Shown one piece after another: positions 4,113 to 22,180 of a stretch of 24,000 bases of DNA (position 1 is its first letter; each line of letters starts with the position of its first letter). Below the pieces are notes generated by a model. It worked only from the letters and a program-made list of their open reading frames with translations, was not told the origin of the DNA and did not search any database. The DNA is from an uncultured Candidatus Saccharibacteria bacterium (GTDB lineage: Bacteria > Patescibacteriota > Saccharimonadia > Saccharimonadales > JAGQNJ01), in assembly GCA_964494845.1 (NCBI GenBank), contig CAZBSC010000002.1, forward strand, positions 22,970 to 46,969, in the 5' to 3' direction. The position numbers were made by a program, and so were the translations under genes.

Positions 4113-4173
4113 CAAAAATATTGGTATTCGTAATTATCTTGTTTCCTATTAAAAATTTTCTCGTAAGGGTTGG

Positions 4174-4189: not shown

Positions 4190-4272
4190 CTCTTCGAGCG
4201 ATTAGGTTAACAGACATTGATCTTTATATAGGCATATACTGTTATTGTAGCAACAAATGAGGAGGTGCTCAG

Positions 4273-4893: not shown

Positions 4894-4897
4894 AATC

Positions 4898-5974: not shown

Positions 5975-6016
5975 AGGTCATATTCTAACAGAGGTAAGGC
6001 AATTATCCTAAGCTTA

Positions 6017-6424
6017 TTATTCTACAGATATAGTACCTTTAATATAGGGGGCTAGATGATCGTGCATTCTCCACTTGCCCTTATTCTTGAAGGTGAATGT
6101 CCAACTTTCACCTGGCTTTAGCTCTCTTTTTGGATCAAATTCTGGGTACAAATCATGAGTTGGATGGATATTGGATGCTGGCCAGCGATTGCTTCCACTT
6201 TTATTGACGAACGTTATAGCTTCACCAGTTTTTAGGGTTACTTCGTTCGGGCTATACCCATCATCATTCATTACTATTGTTGCGACAACTTTTCCGTTAG
6301 TTGGGGCAGGCTCTTGAGTCTGAGTCTGCTCGTTATTTTTACGACTAAGCTGAGAGTACCCGACAATGAATAAGAAAATTAACGCAAAGAAGAATAGTGC
6401 GATTAATAGATGTTTTTTCTTCAT
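6017..6424 (-). CDS. secreted/membrane-anchored cupredoxin-like domain protein lacking the type-1 Cu cysteine
   Basis: I prefer ATG at 6424, giving MKKKHLLIALFFFALIFLFIVGYS (a signal/anchor). It overlaps the upstream stop as TAATG. The ORF track's TTG at 6439 is an alternative start. The beta-sandwich-like pattern is VVATIVMNDDGYSPNEVTLKTGEAITFVN...PGESWTFTFKNKGKWRMHDH...GTISVE. His/Met residues are present but there is no Cys. Confidence 0.7.
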   Translation of the reverse strand: MKKKHLLIALFFFALIFLFIVGYSQLSRKNNEQTQTQEPAPTNGKVVATIVMNDDGYSPNEVTLKTGEAITFVNKSGSNRWPASNIHPTHDLYPEFDPKRELKPGESWTFTFKNKGKWRMHDHLAPYIKGTISVE

Positions 6425-7623
6425 TAGATTGCCGTACAATAAGATTTATATTTTGGCTCGAATTTATCACAAAACTGACTGAGTTTATCGTCACTCTCGA
6501 TTATATCTTCAGCTCGGTCCGAGATTGTGGCGTAACACCTTTTTTTGTAAGCCGTCGATATTAGATTATTACATAGGTCTAGGGCGGTTTCTTGTGTGCT
6601 CTCATGCCAAAATGAATTTTGTGACGCACCTTCTATACAAGCTAGTGCCAATTCATTTGACTTCGCATAACTACAGTTTTTCTCAACCTTTTCTGAGTCA
6701 CTAGAGAAGGTTGTGCCGACATCTCTTCCCATACTTAAGAAACAAGTTGTCTGGTATTTATTTTCAATCTCAGTGCATGCGTTCGCTACTTTGTTATATT
6801 TAGTTCCAAATATTGCTATCATTCTCGATGTTTGATAGTTATAGCAAGCAAATTTATATCTTTCGTTGATTTTTGAAGAATTACACGGGAACAAAGGGTC
6901 ATTGCTCAGCCATTCACTACTATGGTAATGGCTGTCTTCTTTATGTTTTTTTGCGTCATTAACCGATAGAGCTCCAACTACGTTTTCCATAAAGACGCCT
7001 GAATAGCAGGATTCCTTACTGTCAAACATTTTCGGCAAGCCGTCACATCCTTTTAATGCTTCGGGGAGGTCGTAATCGTTGTAAGCCATTAAACCGTGGC
7101 CTATTCCATGAAAGCACTGATGTGCATAAAAATTATTAATCTGATTTTGACAGATCAGGTTAATGCTTTCGGATAGATTTTCTGCACCATGCTCTTTAAA
7201 AAAGGCTTCTGTTACTCCATGGGTATAGCCGGACATACATTCACTGTTGTTTACGCTAAATGCCTTTTCGCCTATTAACTCATAGTTGAGATGGCCTACT
7301 TTATGGACGTATTGATGACAGTCAACTGGGGACGCCTTTATTCTTGCAATAGTCTCGTCTACGCCGTGTTTTTTCAGGTATTTTTTCAATATTTTTTCGT
7401 CCGAAAAGATCCCACGGTCATCCCTAGCTACTTGATTACCGTGTACTTGGTTGAAAGCCAAGTTATTTAAGATAAAAAGAACACAAGCGAAAGCCAGCAA
7501 CATTGCGATGTATGAATAATATCTAATGTATCTATTCTGCCGGTAAAGTAGGGCCAGCTTAGAAAAAAAATATTTAGATTTTTGACGTATTTTTAAATTA
7601 TGGGCTTTTCTATTTTTAGTCAT
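6424..7623 (-). CDS. membrane-anchored Cys-repeat protein (about 7.5 tandem ~34-aa C-x10-12-C units; His-rich first units)
   Basis: 399 aa. Basic N-terminus, then one TM helix (YSYIAMLLAFACVLFILNNLAF). The ectodomain has 16 Cys arranged periodically (158/170, 193/206, 247/260, 283/294, 317/329, 351/363, 385/396, plus 102 and 129). No family recognised. Confidence 0.7.
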   Translation of the reverse strand: MTKNRKAHNLKIRQKSKYFFSKLALLYRQNRYIRYYSYIAMLLAFACVLFILNNLAFNQVHGNQVARDDRGIFSDEKILKKYLKKHGVDETIARIKASPVDCHQYVHKVGHLNYELIGEKAFSVNNSECMSGYTHGVTEAFFKEHGAENLSESINLICQNQINNFYAHQCFHGIGHGLMAYNDYDLPEALKGCDGLPKMFDSKESCYSGVFMENVVGALSVNDAKKHKEDSHYHSSEWLSNDPLFPCNSSKINERYKFACYNYQTSRMIAIFGTKYNKVANACTEIENKYQTTCFLSMGRDVGTTFSSDSEKVEKNCSYAKSNELALACIEGASQNSFWHESTQETALDLCNNLISTAYKKRCYATISDRAEDIIESDDKLSQFCDKFEPKYKSYCTAI

Positions 7624-7756
7624 CGATTATATTCTTCAATTAAAGTAAATTGTATTGTTACGTAGCTTAAAAAAACCGATTCAAGCATAAGGTAATCATA
7701 TAATAAGAGTTTTTGATTAACAATCTTTAAACGTAAGCGTATATGGTGTATCATTA

Positions 7757-10700
7757 TTGCAAAATGAGTATCAGAATATGAAAGATGTTAACCTACCATC
7801 AAATGACATTGACGCAGACGATTTAAGAGCTTCTTCGTTAAATAATTCTGAGGTGATTGTTGGTAATGTCCAGAAGAAGTCTTTTTTTAAGAATAAAAAG
7901 GTACTGGGCATATGTTTGTTAGTAATTGGTTTACTAGGCCTATCTTACTTAGGTTTCTTGAATTTTTATAAAACCGCAGAAAAACAAGGCTTTAAAGATA
8001 TAGTAATTGGCGATACGACAATCACTAAAGCCGATATTGATAGATATGCTCGAAGTATCGAGAATTATAAGAAAGATAATCCTGACCTGAAATTTAATCA
8101 GTCAGCAAGCGAGATAGCTATAGATGATTTGGTTATGAACGCGGCGCTAATAAAAGAAGCAAAAGAGCGCAAAAAGTCTTTAACAGAGGCAGAGCTTAGA
8201 AAGATCTATAAGATTCCAAAAACTACTACTGATTATCAAGCGACAGTTAAATCCTGGAAGTCTTACGATGGGTCGGGCTATTTTGTCTATACGGTTGAAG
8301 AAAATCTACAATTACGCAAGAAACTAACAGAGGATATTTTGGCGAAGAAATCAATATTTCTAACAGCTGTCAATTTTGACGCGCCATTTTTTAGATTAGA
8401 AAAAAACGCCAACAAGTTAAAGGGTCTTCATGAACAAGCTAAAGACAGACTAACCAAAGAGCTATTGCCGTTATTCCAGAAAAAACTTAGTAAATCAGAA
8501 ATTGCCAAAAAAGCCGATGTTAACTATGTCGATAACCAAAAAGAACCAAATGACATCTATAAACTTTTTATGAAAAAAATCGTGACTACTGCTGGTTATA
8601 TGGAGCAGTACACATCATCTCAAGTTAGCAATCCAAAATTTAACGATATGAAAACAATAGAAAAATCAGGCAAGCTTAACGAATCATTTTATGATTTGGA
8701 TAATGTTGATTACGGTATTTTAATAAATGACCTAAAAAATACTAATCAGGAAATTGATAAGTTAAAAAACGTCGGTGATTATACAGGAGTATTTGCTTCA
8801 AAGACAGGTAGATATATGATTGCTAGACTCGAGAAAAAGTCCGGTGGTGATTATTCTAACTGGGAAGAATTCTTAAATAAATACAAAGAACAGTCAATTC
8901 CAAAAGAGAACAAAATTTCTAAATCGTCCCAGAGTAATGCTAAAAAGTCGCCTAATCTTTTGTCGCAACTGGCGACTCCACAGACTGTGAAAGCCCAGAG
9001 CGTGGTTCCGGGCGGGTGCGGTAGTCATCAAATTACGGCTTCGATTGCATTAGTCTTTCCAAACGGAGCAAGTGCTCAAGCACTAGTAGCGATTAGTCAA
9101 TCAGCTAATGTATGTCTTCCTGGAGGTGCTAGCGCGTGGGGCGATGGATATGCATCAATTAGCGGTACCTGTTGGGGGTCACCACCTACTTCATCCTACA
9201 CTTTGCCTTCGGGCTATAGGGTTACGGCTGACCTAACAAGTACCTGGAGTCCAAGTGACACGAATGCTTACCATGTATGGCAAAGGATGGTTTATTTGGC
9301 AAGAAATTATAACCCGCCACCACCAAACCCACCACCAAACAATAATCCAGGAAACCCTGGAGGAAACCCCGGAAACAATCCTGTTGAGCCGACATGTTCA
9401 GTAAGCGCGACTCTGTCGCAAAATCCTACTACGCTCCAATACAACGTAACAATTTCTTGGTCAAGCAGTCATAACCAGAGTCAATCGCTAAGCTGGTCGG
9501 GTAGTGGCCAAAGTGGCGTAACCGTAGAACAAAATGTGACGAGTTTTCCGCGGACGTATACAGGCACATTTACGAATGGCAACTTTGATCCGCCTAGATC
9601 CGTGACCTGTTCTGACACTGTAAACTTAACGGGACCGCCACCACCTGAACTACCAACCTCACCAATGCTTCAACCGTATATGCGTGTCTATGGTAATGAC
9701 GTGATTGTCGGCAGTGTCTTTAAAAATGATGCCGGAGAATGTGAAACGACCAGTACTAGTGAACCGATAACTGGTATAACTAAATCTAAAATTGTCGATG
9801 ACAAACGGGTATATGCCGGTGCATCTGGTCAGTTCGCGGTTTTTGATAATAGTAAAGATGAATATTGGAAACCACCGTATGGAGACATCAAGCAGTTCTT
9901 TAGTGACAACCAGCGATCTCAGGCCTCTGTTGACCGTACTGAACTAGGCGGTCTTACAATGCCCGGAAATACCATACCCCCCAATGACTTAACTTTCGGC
10001 AATCATTATAGTGTTTACACGCCAAATAAATCTGGTAGCGATAAAGTAGATGATGTTAATTATCCAGGCTGGTGGAAACAAAAAAGTGGTAGAGTCCCAG
10101 CTTGGGGTGGCAATAGTGGATTAGTGATGTGCATACCAAATTATTATGGTGACACAGAAGCCGCTGGCGTTAAATCAGTTCCTGGAGGCATATTAAGCGA
10201 TATAGCCAGAACTCTTACCCTTCCGATTGAAGATACAGAGCGAAAACTACTACTCGTCAACGGTGATCTATTTATCGATAAAAATGTAAAGTATAAAAAT
10301 ACATCATGGGACAGCGTATCTGATATTCCTAATGTAACAGTAATCGTAAAAGGCAATATTAGAATAGACAAAGACGTCACACAACTTGACGGAATATATG
10401 TCGCTCAACCTAAAAATTCTGCTTCTGGCAATAATCCTGATGATGGAGGGTTAATATATACATGTTCTCAGATATATAGACCGTATCTTATTAGAGACCT
10501 AAGAGCAAATTGTGGCAAACAATTAGTTATCAACGGTTCCTTTATCTCTAAGAAAGTGATATTCCATAGGACTAAAGGTTCAGTTGTTTGTGATGAAAGA
10601 CTTCCAGCTACCGTCCCTTGTACCCCTGCAGAGCCAAATGAATCAGCAGACTCTGATAATATTGCCGAAGTCTTCAATTTTAGCCCAGAGGCCTATATGA

Positions 10701-10780
10701 CACCACTTAACGTCAGCTTGCAGTCGGCTTTACCATTCCAAAAGTACGATTCTATCACCAGCCTACCCCCAGTATTTTAA
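7757..10780 (+). CDS. large membrane-anchored modular surface protein: PpiD/PrsA-like chaperone module + Cys-bracketed beta modules + Pro-rich linkers + ~370-aa beta-rich C-terminal domain
   Basis: 1007-aa ORF from TTG 7757 (GGTG lies 8 nt upstream); ATG 7778 is the alternative start. TM helix at aa 49-70. SurA_N/PpiD-like segment DIVIGDTTITKADIDRY...AIDDLVMNAALIKEAKERKKSLTEAEL. Degenerate parvulin end GVFASKTGRYMIARLEKK. See the finding for the remaining modules. Confidence 0.8.
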   Translation: MQNEYQNMKDVNLPSNDIDADDLRASSLNNSEVIVGNVQKKSFFKNKKVLGICLLVIGLLGLSYLGFLNFYKTAEKQGFKDIVIGDTTITKADIDRYARSIENYKKDNPDLKFNQSASEIAIDDLVMNAALIKEAKERKKSLTEAELRKIYKIPKTTTDYQATVKSWKSYDGSGYFVYTVEENLQLRKKLTEDILAKKSIFLTAVNFDAPFFRLEKNANKLKGLHEQAKDRLTKELLPLFQKKLSKSEIAKKADVNYVDNQKEPNDIYKLFMKKIVTTAGYMEQYTSSQVSNPKFNDMKTIEKSGKLNESFYDLDNVDYGILINDLKNTNQEIDKLKNVGDYTGVFASKTGRYMIARLEKKSGGDYSNWEEFLNKYKEQSIPKENKISKSSQSNAKKSPNLLSQLATPQTVKAQSVVPGGCGSHQITASIALVFPNGASAQALVAISQSANVCLPGGASAWGDGYASISGTCWGSPPTSSYTLPSGYRVTADLTSTWSPSDTNAYHVWQRMVYLARNYNPPPPNPPPNNNPGNPGGNPGNNPVEPTCSVSATLSQNPTTLQYNVTISWSSSHNQSQSLSWSGSGQSGVTVEQNVTSFPRTYTGTFTNGNFDPPRSVTCSDTVNLTGPPPPELPTSPMLQPYMRVYGNDVIVGSVFKNDAGECETTSTSEPITGITKSKIVDDKRVYAGASGQFAVFDNSKDEYWKPPYGDIKQFFSDNQRSQASVDRTELGGLTMPGNTIPPNDLTFGNHYSVYTPNKSGSDKVDDVNYPGWWKQKSGRVPAWGGNSGLVMCIPNYYGDTEAAGVKSVPGGILSDIARTLTLPIEDTERKLLLVNGDLFIDKNVKYKNTSWDSVSDIPNVTVIVKGNIRIDKDVTQLDGIYVAQPKNSASGNNPDDGGLIYTCSQIYRPYLIRDLRANCGKQLVINGSFISKKVIFHRTKGSVVCDERLPATVPCTPAEPNESADSDNIAEVFNFSPEAYMTPLNVSLQSALPFQKYDSITSLPPVF

Positions 10781-10824
10781 CCAAAAATAACAGAAAATAT
10801 ACTTGCCTTCGACGGTTATGCTTA

Positions 10825-10833
10825 TGGTATACT
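10825..10833 (+). promoter_or_regulatory. extended -10 promoter element TGgTATACT upstream of pilM
   Basis: TGgTATACT ends 9 nt before the pilM ATG. A weak -35-like TTGCCT (10803-10808) sits at 19-nt spacing. There is no SD before pilM. Confidence 0.4.
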
Positions 10834-10842
10834 GGTCATAAG

Positions 10843-11883
10843 ATGAGTTTATTGTCCGGAGTATCTGATTTTTTTGGACTTGATCTCGGCACCACAGCAG
10901 TTAGAGTCGTAGAGTTAAGAGGGGGTGGGCCGACCAAGCAGTTGTTTAAGTACGCCTCCGCGCCAATAAATAGTGCGATTGCAGCTAGTGATGCTGATAA
11001 TGATCAACATAAAGTAGCTCAAGTTATCCATGATTTAATAACTACATCGCAAATATCAACTAGAAATGTTGCTGTCGGTATACCGTCGTACAAGGTATTC
11101 ACGACAGTGGTGGATATAGATAGACTTTCGCCTAATGATCTAGCTAAAACTATCCGACTTCAGGCGGATTCTCTTATACCAACACCGCTTTCAGAGTCAA
11201 AAATAGACTGGGCAGTAATAGGAGATTCACCCAAGGATAAATCTAAACAAGAAGTCTTATTGACTAGTGTTACCAACGAATATATAGAAAAACAATTGGA
11301 TATTTTGGAGTCTATCGGTCTGAATGTTATAGCTTTCGAACCGGACAATCTGGCGTTAGCCCGCGCAATGGTAGCCCCTGAATCGACAAATCCGCAGGTT
11401 GTTTTGGATATTGGCCACAAGACTACTGATTTAGTGATAGTAATGAATGGTGCCCCCAGGCTAACTAGATCTATCCCGACTGGGTCTGAGGCTATTTTAC
11501 GCTCGGCTGTACAGAACTTGGGCATAGATCAGAAACAAGCTGAACAGTTTGTTTTCAAGTTTGGTTTAAACAAGAACAAGTTAGAGGGACAAATCTACCA
11601 GTCTATTATCGGCACTGTAGATTTAATCGTTAGTGAAGTAGAAAAATCTATTAAATTTTTTCAAACACGCTACGTTGACACGCCTATTGATAGAATTGTT
11701 GTCACTGGTAATGCCGCTGGTCTCCCAGAGTTCCCACTTTACGTTGCTAATAAAACCGGCCTAAAAGTAGAAATAGGCAATGCCTGGAGAAATGTAGCCT
11801 ATCCCCAATCCCAACAAAATGAATTGTTATCAGTGTCCAATAATTTCGGAGTGTCAATCGGTCTGGCGGAGAGGATAGAATGA
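10843..11883 (+). CDS. pilM: type IV pilus assembly protein PilM (actin-like ATPase fold)
   Basis: 346 aa. FFGLDLGTTAVRVVELR, VVLDIGHKTTDLVIV and IVVTGNAAGLPEF are the actin-fold phosphate/adenosine motifs typical of PilM. There is a 4-nt ATGA overlap with pilN. Confidence 0.9.
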   Translation: MSLLSGVSDFFGLDLGTTAVRVVELRGGGPTKQLFKYASAPINSAIAASDADNDQHKVAQVIHDLITTSQISTRNVAVGIPSYKVFTTVVDIDRLSPNDLAKTIRLQADSLIPTPLSESKIDWAVIGDSPKDKSKQEVLLTSVTNEYIEKQLDILESIGLNVIAFEPDNLALARAMVAPESTNPQVVLDIGHKTTDLVIVMNGAPRLTRSIPTGSEAILRSAVQNLGIDQKQAEQFVFKFGLNKNKLEGQIYQSIIGTVDLIVSEVEKSIKFFQTRYVDTPIDRIVVTGNAAGLPEFPLYVANKTGLKVEIGNAWRNVAYPQSQQNELLSVSNNFGVSIGLAERIE

Positions 11884-12566
11884 TCCAATTTAATCTATTA
11901 CCATCAGTAAAGATCGAGTACATAAAAGCAGCTAGGACGAAGCGCATGGTCATTACGGTCGCTGTTTTAGCCGCCGGCTTTGCCTTCCTTTTGTTCATGA
12001 TTCTATTCATAAACGTGAATGTGATACAAACCAAGCACATCAAGAACGTTACAAAAGATATAAAAGACAATGTGTCCAAATTGGAAGCAGTTGAAGATAT
12101 AGACAAGGTTCTTACGGTCCAAAACCAGCTGAAAGCACTCCCGCCACTACACGAACAAAAACCTGCAGCCAATAGAGCACTGAGTTACGTCAGAAAATTG
12201 ACACCAAAAGCAGCAAGCGTATCACAAGTATTAATTGACTTTGATGAATCTACAATTAGCATTGACGGGACAGCGAATTCTCTTGTAACAGTAAATAAGT
12301 TCGTTGATACGTTGAAATTTACAAAATATACAGTAGAAGGTTCTAATGAGTTAAAAAACGCATTTTCGGAAGTAGTGCTAAGTACATTCAGTATTAACGA
12401 CGCCGGAGCCACATTCCAAATCAAATTAAAATTTGATCCGGTTATTTTTGACAATACTAAGGACGTGCAGCTAATTGTCCCCAGTATAATATCTACCAGG
12501 TCCCAAACGGAAAAACCAACCGATCTATTCAAAGCGCCGGCAACTAGCAAAGATAGAGAAAACTAG
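11880..12566 (+). CDS. pilN: type IV pilus assembly protein PilN
   Basis: 228 aa. The N-terminal MIQFNLLP matches the conserved INLLP PilM-binding peptide. It is followed by a single TM helix (VITVAVLAAGFAFLLFMILFI) and a periplasmic-type domain. Confidence 0.8.
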   Translation: MIQFNLLPSVKIEYIKAARTKRMVITVAVLAAGFAFLLFMILFINVNVIQTKHIKNVTKDIKDNVSKLEAVEDIDKVLTVQNQLKALPPLHEQKPAANRALSYVRKLTPKAASVSQVLIDFDESTISIDGTANSLVTVNKFVDTLKFTKYTVEGSNELKNAFSEVVLSTFSINDAGATFQIKLKFDPVIFDNTKDVQLIVPSIISTRSQTEKPTDLFKAPATSKDREN

Positions 12567-12577
12567 TAAGGAAAAAC

Positions 12578-13246
12578 ATGGCAAAAAGACACGTATCACA
12601 AAAAGTAACTCAGATTGACAGGGCGAATACCACCATGGTTGTTTGTGTGGCTGTGTCTGCATTCATCTTTATTTTTTCACTTGTAGCCAGTCACGCCCTT
12701 TGGTCCAAGATGTCTTACCAGAGCAAGATTATAGGTGCTAAAGAAAAGGCAAGAGACCAGCTGATTGCAAATATTAATAAAGTCGGGAATCTGGTGGTAT
12801 CTTATAAAGCATTTGTAGAAACTGCCGACAATATATTAGGCGGGAGTCCATCTGGAAAAGGCGACAAAGATGGGAACAACGCAAAGATTGTGTTGGATGC
12901 ATTGCCAAGCAAATATGATTTCCCTGGCCTGACGACAAGTATCGAAAAAATTCTAAAGAATAATAACAGTTCTATTAACAGTATTAGCGGGACTGATGAT
13001 GAACTTTCTCAGGTTAGTAAAAATAATAGCAATCAGCCTATTGCAATGTCATTCAAGCTCTCTGCCGATGGTACATACGATTCTACGCAGAAATTACTAG
13101 GATTACTGCAGAATTCAATTAGACCAATTCACGTTAAGCAACTAGGATTGGCCAGTGCCGAAAATGGCATAGAGGTGACAGTCACCGCGGACAGTTACTA
13201 TCAGCCAGAAAAAACTCTAACCATTCAGAAGAAGGTGATTAAGTAG
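12578..13246 (+). CDS. pilO: PilO-like type IV pilus assembly protein
   Basis: 222 aa with SD AAGGA. It has a short N-terminus, a TM helix (MVVCVAVSAFIFIFSLVA), a coiled-coil segment and then an alpha/beta region. The call rests on position after pilN and on topology, not on motifs. Confidence 0.6.
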   Translation: MAKRHVSQKVTQIDRANTTMVVCVAVSAFIFIFSLVASHALWSKMSYQSKIIGAKEKARDQLIANINKVGNLVVSYKAFVETADNILGGSPSGKGDKDGNNAKIVLDALPSKYDFPGLTTSIEKILKNNNSSINSISGTDDELSQVSKNNSNQPIAMSFKLSADGTYDSTQKLLGLLQNSIRPIHVKQLGLASAENGIEVTVTADSYYQPEKTLTIQKKVIK

Positions 13247-13247
13247 C

Positions 13248-13499
13248 ATGAAACAAAAAGATATTGCAGTCATCGTAGTAGTAGTCGTTATTAGTGGTTT
13301 TATTTCGTATTTTGTATCTAACGCCTTGTTTTCATCCCCCAAACGTCTTAAGACAGAGGTCGAGGTTGTGGAGCCTATAAGTGCTAGCTTTAGCCAGCCA
13401 GACAAACGTTACTTCAATAAGTCTTCTATCAATCCCACGCAGACAATTACTATAGGTGATAGCGAGAATCAACAACCATTTCAGCAGTCGAGTAACTAA
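13248..13499 (+). CDS. small single-pass membrane protein in the pilMNO-pilB junction
   Basis: 83 aa. SD GAAGGTGA lies 9 nt upstream, and the start is 1 nt after the pilO-like stop. TM helix IAVIVVVVVISGFISYFVSNALF, then a polar tail. No family recognised. Confidence 0.5.
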   Translation: MKQKDIAVIVVVVVISGFISYFVSNALFSSPKRLKTEVEVVEPISASFSQPDKRYFNKSSINPTQTITIGDSENQQPFQQSSN

Positions 13500-13513
13500 G
13501 GGAGACTAGACCT

Positions 13514-15304
13514 ATGAGTGTCTTGTCTGAAGATATACAAAAACAAGTCGAGCAAGCTTTAATTAGTAAAAATTTGCTCGATGCTGATTTAGCGAAACGA
13601 CTTCGGCAAAAAGCCACTGATCAAAGTACGCCATTTTTACAATTGCTAGTGGTAGAGGGCGGTATATCCAATGAAGTTCTGACAAAAACAATAGCTAACG
13701 TCACCAACGTTCCTTACGTAAATCTCAGTAACGCAAAAGTAGATGCTAACGTGTTGGCGTTGTTACCTCAAGATATCGCCGAACTATACATGACTGTGCC
13801 ATTGGGCGAGATGCAACATCGCCTAGTGGTTGCAATGCTAGATGCAGACAACATACAAGCTGTTGATTTCCTGTCAAATAAAATAGGTCGTCCACTGAAG
13901 GTATACGCTGCTTCTGAAGAGGGCATCCGAAGAGTTCTGAGCCAGTACGAGTCCAAGATAGATCAAAATGTAGCCAACGCCTTCAAAAAGCCGGACGAAA
14001 CCACTGAGACAGAGTCCTCAAAAGAAGCTGCGATAGCACAAAATAATATAGAGTCAGTTGTTGCCGATTCACCAATTAGCAAGGCGTTATCCGCGATACT
14101 AGAATACGCCGCAAATAATAGAGCTAGTGATATACACATCGAGCCGTTGGCGGAAGAGATTAAAATACGAGCTCGAATAGATGGCGTACTGCGAGAAATA
14201 ATGAGATTACCAAAGAGCACAGAAGCGCCGCTAGTATCTAGGATAAAAATTTTGGCTAGTCTAAAGATTGACGAACACCGCATTCCTCAAGATGGACAAT
14301 TTACCGTACGCGTTGCCAGGCGTGATATAGATCTGCGAATTGCAATATCCCCTGTGGTGTGGGGGGAGCAGGTTGTAATCAGGCTGCTAGACAAATCTGG
14401 AACCAGCCTAAAACTAGAAGAAATGGGATATATGGGCCGCTCTCTAAAGCAAATTAGGGAAGCTTTGAAATTTTCTAATGGCATGGTTCTTACATCTGGT
14501 CCTACCGGATCAGGAAAATCTACGTCAATGTATGCCTTGATCCAGGAAATTAAAAGTGAAGAAATAAACATAGTCACACTGGAAGACCCGGTTGAATACA
14601 AAATGCCTGGTGTAAACCAAATACAGGTTAATAACGAAGTAGGACTGACTTTTGCAAGTGGTCTGAGATCGATACTGCGCCAAGACCCAAATGTTGTAAT
14701 GGTCGGAGAGATTAGAGATAAAGAAACCGCTCAATTATCTGTTCAGGCCGCATTAACTGGGCACCTTGTGTTTTCGACGCTGCATACTAACTCTGCTGCC
14801 GGCATTCTGCCGCGACTACTTGATATGGGCATAGAACCATTCCTAATCGCTAGTACTGTCCGGGCAGTTATTGGCCAAAGACTAGTTAGGCGTATCGGTG
14901 AGGACAAAGAAGAATACAAGTCCAGCCCGACCGAAACAGAGGCTATTAGATCGACCATAGGTCATTTATTGCCCGAAACTGAACAAGAGGCAGCTAAAGT
15001 GGCGCTTGAATTAGGCTATAAAAGCTTGCCACTAAGTGGCCAAACCGCTTATACTTTGTACAAGGGCAAAGACGGCCCCGATGCGCCCGGTGGATATAAG
15101 GGACGAATGGGCTTGTATGAGGTATTTAATATCAACGAAGATATCCAAAATCTCATACTAAAGCATTCAACAAGTGCTGAAATCCAAAAAGCCGCGCAAG
15201 CCCAAGGCATGATAAGCATGCGTCAAGACGGGTACTTGAAGGCTCTGGCCGGATTAACAACACTAGCAGAGGTAAATAGGGTGGCGGGAACAGAAAGCGC
15301 CTAA
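13514..15304 (+). CDS. pilB: type IV pilus assembly (extension) ATPase PilB/GspE family
   Basis: 596 aa with SD AAGGGAG. It has an N-terminal T2SSE_N-type domain, Walker A GPTGSGKS, Walker B/Asp box VVMVGEIRD, and His box GHLVFSTLHTN. Confidence 0.95.
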   Translation: MSVLSEDIQKQVEQALISKNLLDADLAKRLRQKATDQSTPFLQLLVVEGGISNEVLTKTIANVTNVPYVNLSNAKVDANVLALLPQDIAELYMTVPLGEMQHRLVVAMLDADNIQAVDFLSNKIGRPLKVYAASEEGIRRVLSQYESKIDQNVANAFKKPDETTETESSKEAAIAQNNIESVVADSPISKALSAILEYAANNRASDIHIEPLAEEIKIRARIDGVLREIMRLPKSTEAPLVSRIKILASLKIDEHRIPQDGQFTVRVARRDIDLRIAISPVVWGEQVVIRLLDKSGTSLKLEEMGYMGRSLKQIREALKFSNGMVLTSGPTGSGKSTSMYALIQEIKSEEINIVTLEDPVEYKMPGVNQIQVNNEVGLTFASGLRSILRQDPNVVMVGEIRDKETAQLSVQAALTGHLVFSTLHTNSAAGILPRLLDMGIEPFLIASTVRAVIGQRLVRRIGEDKEEYKSSPTETEAIRSTIGHLLPETEQEAAKVALELGYKSLPLSGQTAYTLYKGKDGPDAPGGYKGRMGLYEVFNINEDIQNLILKHSTSAEIQKAAQAQGMISMRQDGYLKALAGLTTLAEVNRVAGTESA

Positions 15305-15327
15305 TAAAAGGGGAATTTATCATAATT

Positions 15328-16422
15328 ATGGGCACGACAAATACAACCAGTACATCTCAGGGAGAGATAAGAATCGAACCATTGCTTGATGAAGTAATAA
15401 AGAAAAAAGCTTCAGATCTTCATCTTCAGGTCGGGTTACCGCCTATTTTGAGAATTGATGGTAAGCTTGGGCCTGTTTCTGAAGCCAACTTGCTCACCGA
15501 AGAAAGTATCGAGACGTTAATTTTTTCAATTTTAGATGATGATCAAAAAAAGATTCTCCTAAAAGACAAAGAATTTGATTTTAGTTTTGCATACGGTGAT
15601 TTAGGTAGGTTTCGTGTTAATGCTTTCCACGAGCGTGGTAACATCGCTGCGGCATTGCGGCTCATTCCTAACCAATTGTTGACGGTGGAACAACTAGGAT
15701 TGCCGCAAATTGTCAATAAATTTGCTGATTTCCCAAGAGGTCTGGTGCTGGTTACGGGTCCAACTGGGTCTGGTAAATCAACTACGTTGGCTGCTTTGGT
15801 AGACAAGATAAATACTGAACGATCCGACCATATAGTTACCATTGAAGACCCGGTAGAATTTACCCATAAATCCAAGAAATCTGTAGTTGTACAACGCGAA
15901 GTTCATTATGATACCTATTCGTTTTCAGCCGCTCTTAGGAGCAGTCTACGCCAGGATCCAGATGTGGTCTTGATAGGAGAAATGCGTGACCTAGAGACGA
16001 TTGCAGCAGCTATTACAATTGCCGAGACAGGACACCTAGTTTTTGCCACATTACACACCAATAGCGCAGCTCAATCAATCGACAGGATGATAGATGTTTT
16101 TCCTCCTCACCAACAACCACAAATTCGTTCTCAATTGGCAAATATACTAATGGCAATATGTTCTCAGCGATTAATTCCGTCAATTGGTGGGGGAAGACAC
16201 GCTGCTGCGGAAATTTTGATTGCTACGCCAGCCGTAAGAAATATTATTCGCGAAGGAAAGAGTCACCAGCTAGAGGCCGTCATACAAACAGGATCAGAAT
16301 TTGGCATGCAATCTATGGATAAAACGCTAGTTGGGATGGTTCAAAAAGGTCTTATTACTTATGATGAAGCTCGAAATTACGCTGTTGATCTAGACGAGTT
16401 AGACCGAATGATGAGGACTTGA
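15328..16422 (+). CDS. pilT: type IV pilus retraction (twitching) ATPase PilT
   Basis: 364 aa. ASDLHL, Walker A GPTGSGKST, VVLIGEMRD, GHLVFATLHTNSA, and the PilT-specific AVRNIIREGK motif. Confidence 0.95.
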   Translation: MGTTNTTSTSQGEIRIEPLLDEVIKKKASDLHLQVGLPPILRIDGKLGPVSEANLLTEESIETLIFSILDDDQKKILLKDKEFDFSFAYGDLGRFRVNAFHERGNIAAALRLIPNQLLTVEQLGLPQIVNKFADFPRGLVLVTGPTGSGKSTTLAALVDKINTERSDHIVTIEDPVEFTHKSKKSVVVQREVHYDTYSFSAALRSSLRQDPDVVLIGEMRDLETIAAAITIAETGHLVFATLHTNSAAQSIDRMIDVFPPHQQPQIRSQLANILMAICSQRLIPSIGGGRHAAAEILIATPAVRNIIREGKSHQLEAVIQTGSEFGMQSMDKTLVGMVQKGLITYDEARNYAVDLDELDRMMRT

Positions 16423-16431
16423 TAATAGACT

Positions 16432-17649
16432 ATGCTTACATTCAAATACACTGCTAGAGACCCAATTAGTGGGAAAAAGGTATCTGATAAGATTTCAGCT
16501 GAATCTGAACAAGCTGCAACTAAAGCTATTCAGAAAGAGGGGCTTGCCCCGATTGCAATAACGCCTATGAACACTTCAAAGGGTGGCATTAATAGGTTCA
16601 CTCATAGGATAAAAACAAAAGATAAAGTTTTGTTTTCTCGACAATTGTCTACCCTTATTAATGCCGGGCTACCCTTGGTGCAGAGCTTGAGGAATGTTTC
16701 GGGCCAAACCCAAAACAAAAAACTCCAAATAATAATCAACGATATTATTACTGATGTTGAATCTGGGCTCGCGTTCTCGGCTGCATTAGCAAAGTTCCCA
16801 GAGGTTTTTGATAACGTTTTTATTAACCTGGTGGCAGCAGGTGAAGCCTCAGGAACGTTAGATAAGGCATTAGATAGAATAGCTAACCAGAAAGAAAAAG
16901 ACGCTGAAATTATCAGTAAAGTTCGGGGAGCCATGGTCTACCCGATAATTGTTTTATGCGTCATGGCGGCGGTGGTTATATTTATGATAGTCGGTGTTTT
17001 GCCAACTATAGAGCAAGTTTACAAAGGCATCCCGGGTGCTGAACTGCCATTTGTAACCAAGGCATTGCTAGGAATCGCCCACTTTACGATAAAATTCTGG
17101 TGGCTAGAAATTATTCTGCTAATCATAATTGTTTTCTCTACAAGCCGCTGGGCCCGTACACTCGGAGGCAAAAGAATAATTGATAAGTTAAAAATGCGGG
17201 CATGGCCTATAGGACGATTATTCATGAAACTCTACATGGCTAGATTTACCAGGGTAGGATCTACTTTGGTGGCAAGTGGTGTACCACTAATCCAAATGCT
17301 CGAAATTACAGGCAAGTCTGTAAGTAACATTCACATAGAAGAATCTGTCGGCCGGGCGATTGAAAAAGTTAAAGGGGGCAAAGCTTTATCTGATTCTTTG
17401 AAGGGAGATCCCAATTTCTTAGAGTTGGTGCCCGATATGTTGCATATTGGCGAGCAGTCTGGTTCAGTCGAGCAAATGCTATCCAAAACAGCTGATTATT
17501 ACGAGAGAGAAGTTGACAACGAGATTAAGTCTATATCTACAATTATTGAACCTGCATTGATGATTCTGGTGGGCATAGTGGCAATAACAATCGTTACGGC
17601 AATATTGTTGCCAGTATATACTTTGGTCGGCAAGGACATTATTAAGTAG
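16432..17649 (+). CDS. pilC: type IV pilus platform protein PilC (two T2SSF domains)
   Basis: 405 aa. Duplicated GspF/PilC-type domains (FSRQLSTLINAGLPLVQSL... and FTRVGSTLVASGVPLIQML...) with three hydrophobic TM regions. Confidence 0.95.
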   Translation: MLTFKYTARDPISGKKVSDKISAESEQAATKAIQKEGLAPIAITPMNTSKGGINRFTHRIKTKDKVLFSRQLSTLINAGLPLVQSLRNVSGQTQNKKLQIIINDIITDVESGLAFSAALAKFPEVFDNVFINLVAAGEASGTLDKALDRIANQKEKDAEIISKVRGAMVYPIIVLCVMAAVVIFMIVGVLPTIEQVYKGIPGAELPFVTKALLGIAHFTIKFWWLEIILLIIIVFSTSRWARTLGGKRIIDKLKMRAWPIGRLFMKLYMARFTRVGSTLVASGVPLIQMLEITGKSVSNIHIEESVGRAIEKVKGGKALSDSLKGDPNFLELVPDMLHIGEQSGSVEQMLSKTADYYEREVDNEIKSISTIIEPALMILVGIVAITIVTAILLPVYTLVGKDIIK

Positions 17650-17666
17650 ATATGGTTAAAAAATAC

Positions 17667-17695
17667 TTGCTTTTGGTGTTCCACAGAGTTAGTAT
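17667..17695 (+). promoter_or_regulatory. candidate dedicated promoter of the major pilin gene
   Basis: -35 TTGCTT (17667-17672), 17-nt spacer, -10 TAGTAT (17690-17695). Located in the 94-bp pilC-pilin gap, with SD AGGGGG downstream. Confidence 0.35.
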
Positions 17696-17743
17696 TTAAG
17701 CATAAGTATAAATAAACAATCCGCACAGGGGGCATATTGCGAC

Positions 17744-18202
17744 ATGAATAAACTAAAAACAAAACAACAGGGTTTCACGATTATAGAGGTCATGATTGTG
17801 CTAGTAATAGCATCAGTAATACTTTTGATAGTGTTTTTGGCTGTTCCAGCATTACAAAGAAACTCTCGTAATAATCAACGGAAGAACGATGTTAGTCGCT
17901 TATTGAGCGCAGTTACGGAATGGTCAAACAATAACAATGGCAAACTACCTACCACGGATGATGAGAAATTATCAGCACTGCTTAACGTGGGTCAGGGGAG
18001 CTATTATTCAGAGGCTCCGACTTGGCAATCTGGCAAAGTAACAAATAGTATGGATGCTGAGCACATAACAATTGTTACAAAAGCATCCTGCGATGCTAAT
18101 GGCGATGATACTGTAACTACAGCTAGTGGCAGGCGTTTCGCTGTATTGTACGCGGTGGAAACAGGTAGTGGTACACCAGATAAAACTTGCACTGAATCTT
18201 GA
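17744..18202 (+). CDS. pilA: major type IVa-like pilin (prepilin)
   Basis: 152 aa. Short basic leader MNKLKTKQQG, then the cleavage/methylation site G|FTIIEVMIVLVIASVILLIVFLAV with Glu at +5. There is a C-terminal Cys pair (C116/C149) for a D-region disulfide. The gene is flanked by its own promoter-like element and a terminator. Confidence 0.9.
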   Translation: MNKLKTKQQGFTIIEVMIVLVIASVILLIVFLAVPALQRNSRNNQRKNDVSRLLSAVTEWSNNNNGKLPTTDDEKLSALLNVGQGSYYSEAPTWQSGKVTNSMDAEHITIVTKASCDANGDDTVTTASGRRFAVLYAVETGSGTPDKTCTES

Positions 18203-18226
18203 GGATAACAATCTAGATTGATTTAT

Positions 18227-18255
18227 AAAGCTTCATTCTGGAGCTTTATTTTTCT
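18227..18255 (+). terminator. rho-independent terminator/attenuator after the major pilin gene
   Basis: AAAGCTTCA (18227-18235) pairs with TGGAGCTTT (18239-18247): 8-9 bp including one G-U. It is followed by ATTTTTCT. Confidence 0.65.
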
Positions 18256-18291
18256 ACTTGCAGTCAAAAAGGATTAGAATATAACCAAGAT

Positions 18292-19107
18292 ATGATTTTT
18301 ATTATTTTAGTATTACTCGGCCTATGTTTTGGCAGTTTTGTTAATGCAGCTGTTTGGCGGATTCACGAGCAGCAATCAACAAAACCAAAGCATAATAATT
18401 TGTCCGTTGTAGCGGGAAGATCTATGTGCCCTAACTGCTCTCACGTATTATCCGCATTAGATTTAATCCCAGTTTTGAGCTGGGTTTGGCTAAGGGGAAA
18501 ATGTCGTTATTGTCATAAAAAAATATCTTGGCAGTACCCAACAGTTGAAATCGCAACGACTGTATTGTTTGTTCTTTCTTATGTATATTGGCCGTTTAAT
18601 TTTGATTCGTTAGGCATGCTCCAATTTTCTTTGTGGTTAGTTTTTCTAATTGGATTTATGGTAATTTTTGTTTATGACACAAAATGGATGATAATCCCCA
18701 ATAGAGTAATATACCCACTAATCGTGCTCGGTATTGTTTATGTATTACTATCGTCAATAGCAAATGGCTCTTTTGACCCAATTATCCGAGCTTTATACGG
18801 AGTTATTATTGCCAGTGGCCTTTTCTATGGCTTGTTTCAAATATCTGGTGGTAAATGGATAGGTGGTGGTGATGTGAAGCTTGGATTTGCAATTGGTCTA
18901 ATAATTGGTGGGGCAACTCAAGCAGTTTTGGTGCTTTTCATAGCCTCTTTACTGGGATGCTTTGTTTCTATCCCACTATTAATTTCTGGTCAGGGCAGAA
19001 AAAAGAAAGTTCCGTTCGGTCCATTTTTGATAATAGCTACGTTTGTAGTTATGTTGTTTGGTGCTAGTATCTCAACTTGGTATCAAAACAACATTCTACT
19101 ACTGTAA
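18292..19107 (+). CDS. pilD: prepilin peptidase / N-methyltransferase PilD (A24 family)
   Basis: 271 aa. N-terminal CPNC...CRYC zinc-type motif. Catalytic Asp contexts FVYDTKWMIIPN and GGGDVKLGF. Multiple TM helices. Confidence 0.92.
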   Translation: MIFIILVLLGLCFGSFVNAAVWRIHEQQSTKPKHNNLSVVAGRSMCPNCSHVLSALDLIPVLSWVWLRGKCRYCHKKISWQYPTVEIATTVLFVLSYVYWPFNFDSLGMLQFSLWLVFLIGFMVIFVYDTKWMIIPNRVIYPLIVLGIVYVLLSSIANGSFDPIIRALYGVIIASGLFYGLFQISGGKWIGGGDVKLGFAIGLIIGGATQAVLVLFIASLLGCFVSIPLLISGQGRKKKVPFGPFLIIATFVVMLFGASISTWYQNNILLL

Positions 19108-19134
19108 AAAGGGTCTATTAGACCTTCTTGCTTA

Positions 19135-19143
19135 TGCTATACT
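19135..19143 (+). promoter_or_regulatory. extended -10 element TGcTATACT 7 nt upstream of the first minor-pilin ATG
   Basis: Same TGnTATACT box as upstream of pilM. There is no SD. A weak hairpin GGTCT/AGACC (19112-19124) lies just after the pilD stop. Confidence 0.35.
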
Positions 19144-19150
19144 TAAGTCA

Positions 19151-19984
19151 ATGGGTAAAGGGGTAAGAAATACCAAACGATCTCCGTATCGGAGGCGCAA
19201 TGGCTATACAATTGTAGAGACCATGATATTCTTGGCTGTTTCAGGGGTTATACTCTCCACTTCTTTGTTATTTTTCAGAGGCAGGCAAGAAAGAATCCAG
19301 TATACACAGGGTGTTCGAGAGGTTGAGTCACAGATAAAAACAATCATGAATGAGGTCTCTAGCGGATATTTTCCAAATGATGGTAGTTTTACGTGCGCAG
19401 GAGGTGGGGCAGCTGGACCAATCTTGAATTTTGCTGCGACGGGTGGCCAGGGGACAAATGAAGATTGTGTATTTTTGGGCAAGGTAATCAGGTTTAATGA
19501 AGGTTCAAACTATTCTTCATATTCTGTTCTCGGGTTAAGAAAAACAGGCGATGAATTGTCATCGACTCTTGCAGGAGCTAAGCCCATAATAAACGAGAAG
19601 ATTGGCGAAACCTATGCATTGCCCTGGGGAATAAAAGTGACAAAAGTTGCCAACGTAGACGGTACGCCACCGAATATCAGTTCCGTAGGTTTGATATTAT
19701 CTTTAGGAGCATCGTCGGGCGCTCCTGACCCAGCTGGCTTTTCATCAGGTTCTAGGTCCGCTGATTTATTGCCAATTATCGACACTAACGGATTAAGTGA
19801 TGACTTTTCTAGAGTTTCATCAGGTGTTAATGGAATGTTAGATAGCCAAAGACGCCCGAAAAAAATAATAATTTGCCTGGTTTCAGGTAGTGGAGATAGA
19901 AAATCTGCGATTGTTTTAGGTGGTGAAGGCAAGCAATTGAGTGCCGAAACATTTATAGATTCAACTTTCCCGGAGTGCAATTAA
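19151..19984 (+). CDS. minor (pseudo)pilin with long basic leader
   Basis: I use ATG 19151; the ORF track's 19058 start would overlap pilD by 50 nt. Leader MGKGVRNTKRSPYRRRNG, then G|YTIVETMIFLAVSGVILSTSLLFF with Glu at +5. 277 aa. Confidence 0.75.
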   Translation: MGKGVRNTKRSPYRRRNGYTIVETMIFLAVSGVILSTSLLFFRGRQERIQYTQGVREVESQIKTIMNEVSSGYFPNDGSFTCAGGGAAGPILNFAATGGQGTNEDCVFLGKVIRFNEGSNYSSYSVLGLRKTGDELSSTLAGAKPIINEKIGETYALPWGIKVTKVANVDGTPPNISSVGLILSLGASSGAPDPAGFSSGSRSADLLPIIDTNGLSDDFSRVSSGVNGMLDSQRRPKKIIICLVSGSGDRKSAIVLGGEGKQLSAETFIDSTFPECN

Positions 19985-19987
19985 ATT

Positions 19988-20446
19988 ATGATTAGGTTTC
20001 ATAAAAATCAGATGGGGGATACGATAGTAGAAGTTTTGATTGCTGTTGCAGTCATGGGTATATCTATTGGTCTTGCGTACGGAATTTCAAATCGCAGCCT
20101 GAAGTCTGCTCGTCAGTCACAAGAAAGACTGGAAGCACTTAAACTAGTTGAGGGACAAGTTGAGCAACTAAAAGCATTATCATATTCAACGGATAATAAA
20201 GGAATTTTTTCCGAAAATTCAGCTTTTTGTATAAATAATGGCGATAAAGTCGTTTCGACTGATTTAATTCTAGGCGACCTAGATTCAGACCCACTGACTA
20301 AATATAATCCGGACTGTATAAAGGGCCTATATCACATAGCCGTAAAGCGTAATAGTAACGAATTTACTATTGCTGCTAGGTGGTTTGGTATCAATGGTCT
20401 GAATGTCGAAGAAGTTAAATCAAGGTATAGGTTATTCGATCAATGA
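19988..20446 (+). CDS. PilV-like minor pilin
   Basis: 152 aa. MIRFHKNQMG|DTIVEVLIAVAVMGISIGLAYG with Glu at +5. It is followed by the helical segment SARQSQERLEALKLVEGQVEQLKAL, typical of PilV-type proteins. Confidence 0.7.
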   Translation: MIRFHKNQMGDTIVEVLIAVAVMGISIGLAYGISNRSLKSARQSQERLEALKLVEGQVEQLKALSYSTDNKGIFSENSAFCINNGDKVVSTDLILGDLDSDPLTKYNPDCIKGLYHIAVKRNSNEFTIAARWFGINGLNVEEVKSRYRLFDQ

Positions 20447-21096
20447 TGAACATAATAAAGCGACTATACAAAACTCAATCCGACGGTTTCACTATCATCG
20501 AACTGATGATTGCGATTACGATTTTCTCAGTAGTTCTCTTGGCTGCAGGAGCAACACTAACTCAAATAAGCAGACTTTATTATAAGGGCGTAATAACCAA
20601 CAAAACTCAAAATATTTCTAGAAGTTTAATTGATGAAATATCTCAAAATCTACAATTTAGTAGCGGTGTAGTTAATTCGGCTGCTAATGGCCAGACGCAG
20701 AGCGTGTGTATTGGCTCAACTCGATATACGTTCGTTCTTAATAAACAGATTAAACAGGGAGATCCAGGAAATTTGCACGCTTTGTGGCGAGACAAGATAT
20801 CCGGGGTAGGTAGTTGCGGCGATAACCAACCAAACCTATCTGATGAAAATCCGGTTGGCGATGAGGGCAAAGAGCTGTTAGAAACTGGCATGAGATTGAA
20901 GTCTTTGTCTGTTACAGATACTGGCCGTAACGAAATATATTCAATAACTGTCGGTGTAATGCACGGAGATGACGATCTTATTAACTTTACAAGCCCGGGG
21001 AATCCGAAGGACTGCAAGGGAGATATCACTGGTTCGCAGTGGTGCGCATTGTCCGAATTAACTACTCAAATATATTCTAGGGTTCGTGTACACTAA
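20443..21096 (+). CDS. PilW-like minor pilin
   Basis: 217 aa. 4-nt ATGA overlap with the previous gene. Leader ...KTQSDG|FTIIELMIAITIFSVVLLAAGATL with Glu at +5. Confidence 0.75.
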   Translation: MMNIIKRLYKTQSDGFTIIELMIAITIFSVVLLAAGATLTQISRLYYKGVITNKTQNISRSLIDEISQNLQFSSGVVNSAANGQTQSVCIGSTRYTFVLNKQIKQGDPGNLHALWRDKISGVGSCGDNQPNLSDENPVGDEGKELLETGMRLKSLSVTDTGRNEIYSITVGVMHGDDDLINFTSPGNPKDCKGDITGSQWCALSELTTQIYSRVRVH

Positions 21097-21103
21097 TAAT
21101 ATT

Positions 21104-22180
21104 ATGAAAAGCGTTAGAACAATAAATAGATTGGCCAAAGACGAAAAAGGGATAGCCTCAATTATGGTGGCAGGTATATTTATCGTCATAATATCATTAG
21201 TAGCTACGGGTTTTGCTACATTAATGCGCCGCGAACAGCGACAAGCATTAGACAAACAGTTGAGCACGCAGGCATATTACGCCGCTGAATCAGGGGTAAA
21301 TGATGCAATAAAATATTTAGCCACCCATCCTTCGGCAAAGTCATCGGACTGCAGTAAAACTGCTGATGTAACTGGGAATACTTCATTTGGGACAAATAAC
21401 GATGCGATCTCATACACTTGTGTTTTAGTTGATACCACTCCTGATTCATTAAATTACAACCCGATTTCTACAGACAAATCTACAATTTTAAAACTTAATG
21501 CAGCGGGGGCGGATACCATAAATATTAGCTGGCAAGATTGGGCAAATAATCAAAATTATGTAACTGCATCTGATGGCCATCCGTTATCCAACGCAGATTC
21601 TAGGGGAGTATTGCACGATGAAGTATGGCAATCAGGCGTTCTTCGCGTATCTTTGATGCCCATAACTCAACCAATCACCAGAGAAAAACTAATAAAAGAG
21701 ACCCAGACGTTGTTTTTGTATCCTAACTTGAACACCACAACCGGTAGAAAGGGTACTCATCAATTTTCTGCATCTAAAGCCGGACAAGGTGTTTTTGTGG
21801 ACGGCGAGTGTAATCCTGCCAATAGCGATATTAATCCTGAAATAACCCCCTATGACTGTAATATGAAGATTACTAACTTACCTGCTGGGGTAGATTCTTA
21901 CTATATTCGGCTAAAATCGATCTTGACTAACCATTCTGTTCAGATCACCGCTAATGGTGACGGTAATCAGATTGAGTTACCAGGAACGCAAGCCGTCATT
22001 GATGCTACTGGTAAAGCTAACGACGTGCTTCGTCGAATTCAGGTTAGAGTTCCCCTAAACGCAGATTATAGCTATCCAGAGTTTGGTTTAGAGACAACTA
22101 ATGCGATATGTAAAGATCTAGAATTATATGTTCATATTCCTGGCGCATATCCTAATGCAGACAGGGATAACTGCTCATAA
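21104..22180 (+). CDS. PilX-like minor pilin / pilus-tip component (no Glu+5)
   Basis: ATG 21104; GTG 21086 is the alternative start. KDEKG|IASIMVAGIFIVIISLVATGFATLMRREQRQALDKQLSTQAYYAAESGVNDAIKYL matches the PilX N-terminal pattern (hydrophobic helix then ...A..AEsG...A). A large ~300-aa C-terminal domain contains several Cys. Confidence 0.7.
   Translation: MKSVRTINRLAKDEKGIASIMVAGIFIVIISLVATGFATLMRREQRQALDKQLSTQAYYAAESGVNDAIKYLATHPSAKSSDCSKTADVTGNTSFGTNNDAISYTCVLVDTTPDSLNYNPISTDKSTILKLNAAGADTINISWQDWANNQNYVTASDGHPLSNADSRGVLHDEVWQSGVLRVSLMPITQPITREKLIKETQTLFLYPNLNTTTGRKGTHQFSASKAGQGVFVDGECNPANSDINPEITPYDCNMKITNLPAGVDSYYIRLKSILTNHSVQITANGDGNQIELPGTQAVIDATGKANDVLRRIQVRVPLNADYSYPEFGLETTNAICKDLELYVHIPGAYPNADRDNCS

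Follow-up and report, generated by a model that had tools for sequence, protein, structure and literature searches.

A modular gene at the head of the Saccharibacteria type IV pilus operon joins a conserved C-terminal domain to exchangeable N-terminal parts

The window analyzed here is a stretch of 24,000 nucleotides (nt) from an uncultured Candidatus Saccharibacteria bacterium (GenBank assembly GCA_964494845.1, contig CAZBSC010000002.1, positions 22,970 to 46,969 of the forward strand). Upstream of the type IV pilus (T4P) gene pilM it carries a large open reading frame (ORF) at 7757..10780 (+), which begins with TTG and comprises 1007 codons. We show that nearly all related loci have a pilM-N-O-x-B-T-C-pilin-D operon that starts with a gene carrying the same conserved C-terminal unit. 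The N-terminal part of the protein is exchangeable, and the conserved pilus-linked element is the C-terminal domain, not the SurA_N-like chaperone module that precedes it in the window. By analogy with PilY1 and PilC, the gene product may be an accessory protein of the Saccharibacteria T4P locus, modular in build and located outside the cytoplasm, an explanation to which we give slightly less than an even chance.

Linkage of the C-terminal domain to pilM

All seven homologues that were looked up, with identities down to 26%, lay directly upstream of pilM on the same strand. Species-representative genomes were scanned with a profile built from 7 sequences. pilM followed the domain in ~24 of 30 genome loci, that is, in every locus with a pilM-side flank, and the order there was the domain and then pilM-N-O-x-B-T-C. 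The remaining loci end at a contig end. Of the 30 loci, nearly all are from Saccharibacteria, with one labelled Paceibacteria. A survey from the PilM side covered 80 metagenomic pilM loci (PilM relatives of at least 66% identity), 56 of them with at least 1,100 nt upstream. An ORF with the C-terminal domain was present upstream on the same strand in 55 of these 56, at most 400 nt away in 51, the typical gap to pilM being 49-170 nt. The homologues thus adjoin pilM instead of being scattered, in line with the pilus link drawn in a first, sequence-only reading of the window. That reading had also placed the gene at the head of the pil operon, 62 nt before pilM on the same strand. This was confirmed, and the spacer (10781..10842; pilM start 10843) contains no terminator-like site on the + strand.

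The gene is very common in the clade sampled and is not indispensable for having a pilus. In a natural absence variant (L067), ychF adjoins pilM and there is no gene with the C-terminal domain. ychF also adjoins pilM in S. epibionticum (SEML1_0103-0104), with no such gene between them, and the genes of this pilus locus (T4P1) are essential (PMC10633639 Table S1). Because both L067 and the essential T4P1 lack the gene at that position, we argue that it is an accessory rather than a core part of the pilus.

Two to three tandem paralogues were often found in the genome loci and were also seen in the PilM-side survey. Upstream of pilM, tandem C-terminal-domain genes that differ in their N-terminal parts are seen in L018, L024, L053, L088, L020, L021, L027, L005 and L008. 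Where a SurA-like form stands beside another form (L027, L008 and L033), the SurA-like one adjoins pilM. In L004, a second, divergent set of pilM-N-O and small ORF together with pilT (4151-7941) lies directly upstream of the homologue P0011 of the big gene.

The conserved C-terminal domain spans residues 638-977 (9668..10687, +; residue numbers are counted from TTG 7757). Residues 638-1007, used as a profile in a search of 1.84 billion representative proteins (clusters at 50% identity), matched 6,712 clusters at E ≤1e-3, and 1,956 of these remained at E ≤1e-30. For almost all of the 150 hits listed, the match reaches the last residue of the protein. A word-indexed homologue search with this profile returned 25 proteins. 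The domain is followed by a C-terminal tail (10688..10777, +) that ends in SLPPVF-COOH and is predicted to be disordered (predicted local distance difference test score, pLDDT, <50). Among 136 complete proteins, the consensus of the last twelve residues is KYD[YS]ITSLPP[IV]L, with leucine at position -5 in 135, proline at -3 in all 136 and a hydrophobic last residue in 135. Note that LPPVF is the very end of the window protein, with no hydrophobic segment or charged tail after it, and the protein was rejected as a sortase (LPXTG) substrate on these grounds.

A model of the domain built from 34 sequences had a pLDDT of 78 and a predicted template-modelling score of 0.79, again with a disordered tail. 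Foldseek searches of this model against the PDB and BFVD gave nothing significant (all E >0.4). The top matches were all small beta-solenoids (ComZ, ice-binding proteins, bactofilin and MinC), and no propeller fold was among them. No sequence match to Pfam, NCBIfam or the PDB was obtained. Since the top matches are all small solenoids, none of them significant, and the sequence searches were empty, the model points to a probable beta-solenoid of a family absent from Pfam, NCBIfam and the PDB. This agrees with the beta-helix-like fold proposed earlier, whose three rung-like repeats (834-844, 864-874 and 925-935) and six cysteines (662, 792, 903, 919, 945 and 955) we located in the domain. In the family alignment D648, D878, R938 and E971 are invariant or nearly so.

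In contrast to the C-terminal domain, the N-terminal parts vary widely across the family. Most of the N-termini of the top 136 complete members are ordinary Sec signal peptides. The parts that follow were a VWA domain (P0023), DUF6923, CARDB/DUF11 or an uncharacterised region, or there was none; the minimal form, a signal peptide plus the C-terminal domain, has ~370 residues (367-368 in the cases looked up). Both minimal forms and the DUF6923 form occupy the same position upstream of pilM. The SurA-like module was present in only 6 of the 136 members and at 2 of the 55 pilM loci. Thus the role of pilin foldase, one of several that the sequence-only reading had suggested, is not the trait that sets the family apart. 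A pilin-type class III signal was also rejected, as the motif G-[FMY]-[TS]-L-x-E occurs in 0 of the 136 N-termini and the window protein has no PF07963 match. By eye, a recurrent unannotated N-terminal module with motifs like GAAFIIxTMLG and YAI[KR]xxC[GA]NPxG was seen in L060, L079, L082, L088, L091, L099, L106 and P0025; this module may be a further undescribed domain.

The DNA of the gene is mosaic. In L012, the proteins from pilM to pilD are 89-99% identical to those of the window, whereas the big protein is 36% identical in its N-terminal part and 50% in its C-terminal domain; the DNA becomes ~90% identical from 10613, near the gene end. In L042 and L043, the DNA is 89-92% identical to the window from 9653 onward, at the end of the proline linker and the start of the C-terminal domain. 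L009 shares 6017-10780 at 88%, a block that comprises two divergent upstream genes and the whole big gene, while its flanks are at 64-69%. These sharp changes in DNA identity at 9653 (C-terminal domain start), ~10613 (near the gene end) and 10780 (gene end) indicate recombination in which pieces of the gene are exchanged separately from the pil operon. Judged by the identity patterns of L012, L042, L043 and L009, the gene is shuffled along its domain borders, and its divergence far outpaces that of the machinery genes. Exposed surface proteins that determine interactions typically reshuffle and diverge in this manner.

Architecture and setting of the window protein

The ORF is real and not a chance one, since it has 21 full-length homologues (26-96% identity) and AlphaFold predicts confidently folded domains. 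In the alignment, the residue that corresponds to M8 is the first residue of all 21 homologues. ATG 7778 is therefore the likelier start, giving a gene at 7778..10780 (+) and a protein of 1000 residues in place of the mechanical ORF from TTG 7757. A full-length AlphaFold model, built on an alignment of 22 family members, had a mean pLDDT of 67.5, with confident blocks at residues 80-380, 421-517, 546-625 and 790-975. Residues 1-48, 383-421, 518-541, 625-637 and 978-1007 are predicted to be disordered. The domain order proposed from the sequence was recovered residue by residue: transmembrane helix 49-70, TGRYMIARLEK at 350-360, C421/C453/C472, a linker at 520-542, C547/C618, GPPPPELPTSP at 626-636 and the C-terminal domain from 638.

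The N-terminus contains a single transmembrane helix (residues 49-74; 7901..7978, +), seen as a hydrophobic stretch at 49-70 and as an AlphaFold helix at 49-74. About 40 cytoplasmic residues precede it and an AxA cleavage site is absent; the helix is probably an uncleaved signal anchor. It would tether the protein to the membrane, as a transmembrane helix does in PpiD and a lipobox in PrsA. The segment that follows (residues 80-194; 7994..8338, +), with VIGDTTITKADIDRY at residues 83-97, is supported as a SurA_N-type chaperone module. PF13624 was matched by 20 of the 22 family members (best E 1.1e-9), the window protein itself scoring 20.8 bits, under the gathering score of 27.2. The profile of the N-domain aligned with a SurA_N+Rotamase_2 lipoprotein in hhalign with 95.8% probability (E 7e-9). 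Foldseek of the full-length model against the PDB returned the SurA-like LIC12922 (3nrk; probability 0.99) and the PrsA-like YacD (9a7d_B), and its only matches were SurA/PrsA-like and tandem immunoglobulin (Ig)-like proteins. These results uphold the membrane-anchored SurA_N-like chaperone of the earlier reading. Pfam and NCBIfam, queried with the complete protein and with its sub-domains one by one, yielded nothing beyond the weak SurA_N match; PHROGs gave no match; a PDB search with the whole-family profile found none and one with the N-domain profile gave only chance-level matches (E >0.07). A word-indexed homologue search with the N-domain returned 3 proteins.

Residues 195-365, with a closing helix at 369-380 (8339..8911, +), form an inserted alpha/beta domain of predicted parvulin-like topology. 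The secondary structure order that DSSP assigns to the AlphaFold model fits beta-alpha3-beta-alpha-beta2 (strand 195-206, helices, strand 277-285, helices, strands 346-348 and 352-363, helix 369-380). The Foldseek alignments to 3nrk and 9a7d_B extend over ~330-356 columns but with template-modelling (TM) scores of 0.2-0.3, and are weak matches. No Rotamase family was found by Pfam at E ≤10 for residues 195-385, or at E ≤0.01 in any of the 22 family members, and hhalign to the Rotamase_2 part of P0184 gave 1.4%. The catalytic histidine is absent from both corresponding strands, LAKKSIFLTAVN (195-206) and FASKTGRYMIARLEKKSGGD (346-365). As the predicted topology fits while the sequence signal and the histidine are lacking, we treat the region as a probable degenerate insert, inactive as a peptidyl-prolyl isomerase (PPIase). 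For the parvulin-like end of the earlier proposal, only the predicted topology and the two weak Foldseek matches are in favor, and the sequence searches lend it no support.

Two beta modules connect the chaperone part to the C-terminal domain, as had been proposed. Module 1 (residues 421-517; 9017..9307, +) contains C421, H424, C453 and C472, which are invariant across the 22-member family. A linker rich in Pro, Asn and Gly (residues 520-542; 9314..9382, +), predicted to be disordered, leads to module 2 (residues 546-625; 9392..9631, +), a predicted Ig-like sandwich bracketed by C547 and C618 that is missing from the homologues P0010 and P0014. The Foldseek matches of both modules are to proteins with tandem Ig-like domains, among them the BcpA pilin and Fabs, consistent with the Ig-like nature ascribed to the second one. 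The linker GPPPPELPTSP (residues 626-636; 9632..9664, +) follows, with a recombination breakpoint at its 3' end.

Downstream, 10843..22180 (+) encodes pilM, pilN-like, pilO-like, an 83-residue ORF, pilB, pilT, pilC, a pilin, pilD, three pilin-like proteins and a PilX_N protein. The ORF between pilO and pilB (13248-13499, +) is kept in nearly every related locus that covers this stretch. Transposon sequencing showed its counterpart in S. epibionticum, SEML1_0107, to be essential, and a structural comparison matched that protein to CpaB-like proteins. The pilD ORF (18292-19107, +) overlaps the next pilin-like ORF (19058-19984, +, TTG start) by 50 nt, and the pilin-like one probably has its real start farther along. 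As had been noted from the sequence, no secretin (PilQ), PilP or PilY1 was matched among the ORFs scanned at 2120-22180; the window ends (<2120 and >22180) were scanned in part. A secretin (PilQ/GspD) identity was also rejected for the big protein, as PF00263 matched neither it nor any of these ORFs.

Divergent from the big gene, 6017-7623 (-) encodes a cupredoxin-like protein of 140 residues and a Cys/His-rich, membrane-anchored protein of 399 residues without a Pfam family. Beyond the pil locus, 22182-23695 carries a XerC/XerD-like recombinase (-) and then an ORF (+). S. epibionticum shows the same order with the recombinase SEML1_0117 and with ndk (SEML1_0118), and after these two come a PH-domain gene and a SurA_N+PpiC gene that stands alone; the window, too, has a bPH gene in the vicinity.

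Possible roles at the pilus

Our preferred explanation is that of a modular accessory protein. The C-terminal domain and the terminal peptide would serve as the docking part, to the pilus itself or to the machinery in the envelope, and the variable N-terminal region would supply a lineage-specific activity, which may be adhesion in the VWA and CARDB forms. In the window variant this activity would be that of a foldase held at the membrane, beside emerging prepilins and other exported proteins. As the transmembrane anchor is probably kept, this variant, with its linkers and Ig modules, could span from the membrane to the wall surface rather than ride the pilus tip. In general terms, a pilus that lacks a secretin would be joined to exchangeable surface modules by way of the conserved domain and tail.

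Several points weigh against this explanation. Linkage alone gives no mechanism for a docking of the domain to pilins or PilMNO. The transmembrane anchor of the window variant is incompatible with travel on the pilus tip in the manner of PilY1, and the minimal form, the C-terminal domain only, has no obvious effector. The gene stands at the pilM end of the operon and not among the minor pilins, where pilY1 sits. The only fold hint to a pilus protein is the non-significant match to ComZ (E 0.43, TM score 0.19), and the PilM-side survey is limited to PilM relatives of at least 66% identity.

The alternative that fares best, although we regard it as unlikely, is a structural collar, guide or tether at the level of the wall or S-layer that replaces the missing secretin/PilP layer. 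Here the C-terminal domain would be the functional part and the N-terminal parts decoration. Such a role would suit the first gene of a machinery operon that is near-universal in the clade, with minimal forms that are the domain alone, and the window variant could reach from membrane to wall by its anchor, linkers and Ig modules; the absence of a secretin or PilP among the ORFs scanned is also in its favor. However, the gene is not at that position in S. epibionticum, where T4P1 is essential, or in L067, and elsewhere it occurs as two to three divergent tandem paralogues. The body of the domain is only 50% identical between genomes that share 89-99% in their Pil proteins, a degree of divergence seldom seen in core parts of a machine, and Foldseek of the domain detected no oligomeric ring or pore-like fold. 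The sequence-only reading had proposed that the protein substitutes for PilQ, PilP and PilY1. This may hold, but S. epibionticum and L067 argue against an indispensable conduit.

TcpF and CofJ use a flexible terminal signal that binds a minor pilin. The protein might likewise be cargo that a piston-like pilus exports or displays, its terminal peptide serving as the signal for the tip minor pilin. The disordered, near-invariant peptide at the exact C-terminus, the cargo-like variation of N-terminal regions behind Sec signal peptides and the location in a pilus operon are consistent with this. On the other hand, a conserved domain of 340 residues is far larger than such a signal, the window variant is probably membrane-anchored, and 1-3 copies per locus do not amount to a substrate set. 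We consider a cargo role distinctly improbable.

An equally slim chance is given to an explanation that concerns the window variant only: a housekeeping PrsA/PpiD-like foldase merely fused to the neighboring gene of the pilus locus, and serving general secretion rather than pili. In S. epibionticum, SEML1_0121 is an essential SurA_N+PpiC protein with a gene of its own, a few genes past the same pil locus and beside the PH-domain gene; the window, too, has a bPH gene nearby, and the SurA-like module is rare among the C-terminal-domain proteins. With such a stand-alone protein near the same locus, the fused module may be a captured general foldase. Nevertheless, a parvulin signature is undetectable in the fused N-domain, whereas SEML1_0121 keeps PF00639, PF13145 and PF13616, and the fusion is conserved down to 26% identity and duplicated in L005.

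Least likely, and in our view very improbable, is a protein that makes an opening in the wall for the pilus, either a beta-helix enzyme (such as a polysaccharide lyase or hydrolase) or a protein that remodels peptidoglycan: the solenoid-like fold and the few charged residues that are invariant or nearly so (D648, D878, R938 and E971) would fit, but the Pfam, NCBIfam and PDB sequence searches were empty, the small-solenoid matches (bactofilin, MinC and ice-binding proteins) are not enzymes, and no lyase or hydrolase was among the Foldseek matches to the PDB and BFVD, none of which fell under E 0.4, so that a lyase-type enzyme was rejected and the domain models as no known enzyme.

A more far-reaching, speculative and rather doubtful proposal is that the solenoid with its SLPP[IV]L-COOH end constitutes an unrecognised component class of secretin-less Saccharibacteria T4P. 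It would act as an adaptor that plugs recombining surface modules onto the pilus or its wall passage, and the swapped cassettes would help to set host range in these obligate epibionts. In cultivated Saccharibacteria, the epibiotic way of life requires type IV pili (PMC10633639, PMC11623550). The gene family offers candidates for two questions, namely how a pilus crosses or works at the secretin-less envelope of an ultrasmall cell, and which proteins give host specificity. Such a gene is absent from the published accounts of the TM7x and S. epibionticum pilus loci that were consulted; locus 1 of TM7x was defined from pilM onward, with no upstream gene mentioned. As the sequence-only reading had supposed, the literature searched describes no characterised protein that has this fusion. 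The analysis defines a domain that Pfam and NCBIfam annotation has missed, within a very large unannotated family, a member of which almost always heads the main pilus operon across the sampled clade. In conclusion, the kind of protein is known, an accessory surface protein of a pilus locus, and the underlying domain family is undescribed.

Comparison with known systems

Among other proteins with a conserved end, the C-terminal domain (CTD) of type IX secretion system (T9SS) substrates and the autotransporter beta-domain resemble the present case in that a conserved domain at the extreme C-terminus follows variable N-terminal passengers. They differ in that the copies here are confined to the pil locus and not spread over many cargo genes, and the fold is unrelated. 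Saccharibacteria are taken to be monoderm-like; together with the lack of a secretin in the locus, this leads us to infer no outer membrane for this lineage. TcpF and CofJ of type IVb pili share with the window protein a pilus-operon location and a flexible, conserved terminal peptide, but their signal is N-terminal and short, whereas here a domain of 340 residues precedes a C-terminal peptide. ComZ of Thermus thermophilus is a large beta-solenoid tied to the type IV pilus and the top, non-significant Foldseek match (6qvi_B). In contrast to the window protein, however, it is a pilin and carries a class III signal peptide, and an E of 0.43 with a TM score of 0.19 does not establish a relationship.

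PpiD, PrsA and SurA offer a likeness for the N-terminal part: behind a membrane anchor come a helical module of SurA_N-like type, an alpha/beta domain as an insert and a closing C-terminal helix. Unlike them, the window protein has neither a parvulin sequence signature nor the histidine of the catalytic strands, carries ~620 extra residues (two beta modules and the predicted beta-solenoid) and heads a pilus operon. PilY1 of Pseudomonas and Myxococcus and PilC1/PilC2 of Neisseria are, like the present protein, non-pilins encoded with pilus genes that combine a conserved C-terminal domain with a variable N-terminus, occur as 1-3 paralogues and are secreted by Sec. PilY1 of P. aeruginosa has a VWA domain, as does the relative P0023. 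Differences are the probable beta-solenoid in place of a beta-propeller, the position upstream of pilM and not in a minor-pilin operon, and the transmembrane-anchored variant. Membership in the PilY1/PilC family was excluded, with no PF05567 match and no propeller. Thus the closest known counterparts are PpiD, PrsA and SurA for residues 49-385 and, by analogy only, PilY1 and PilC for the overall logic of the protein.

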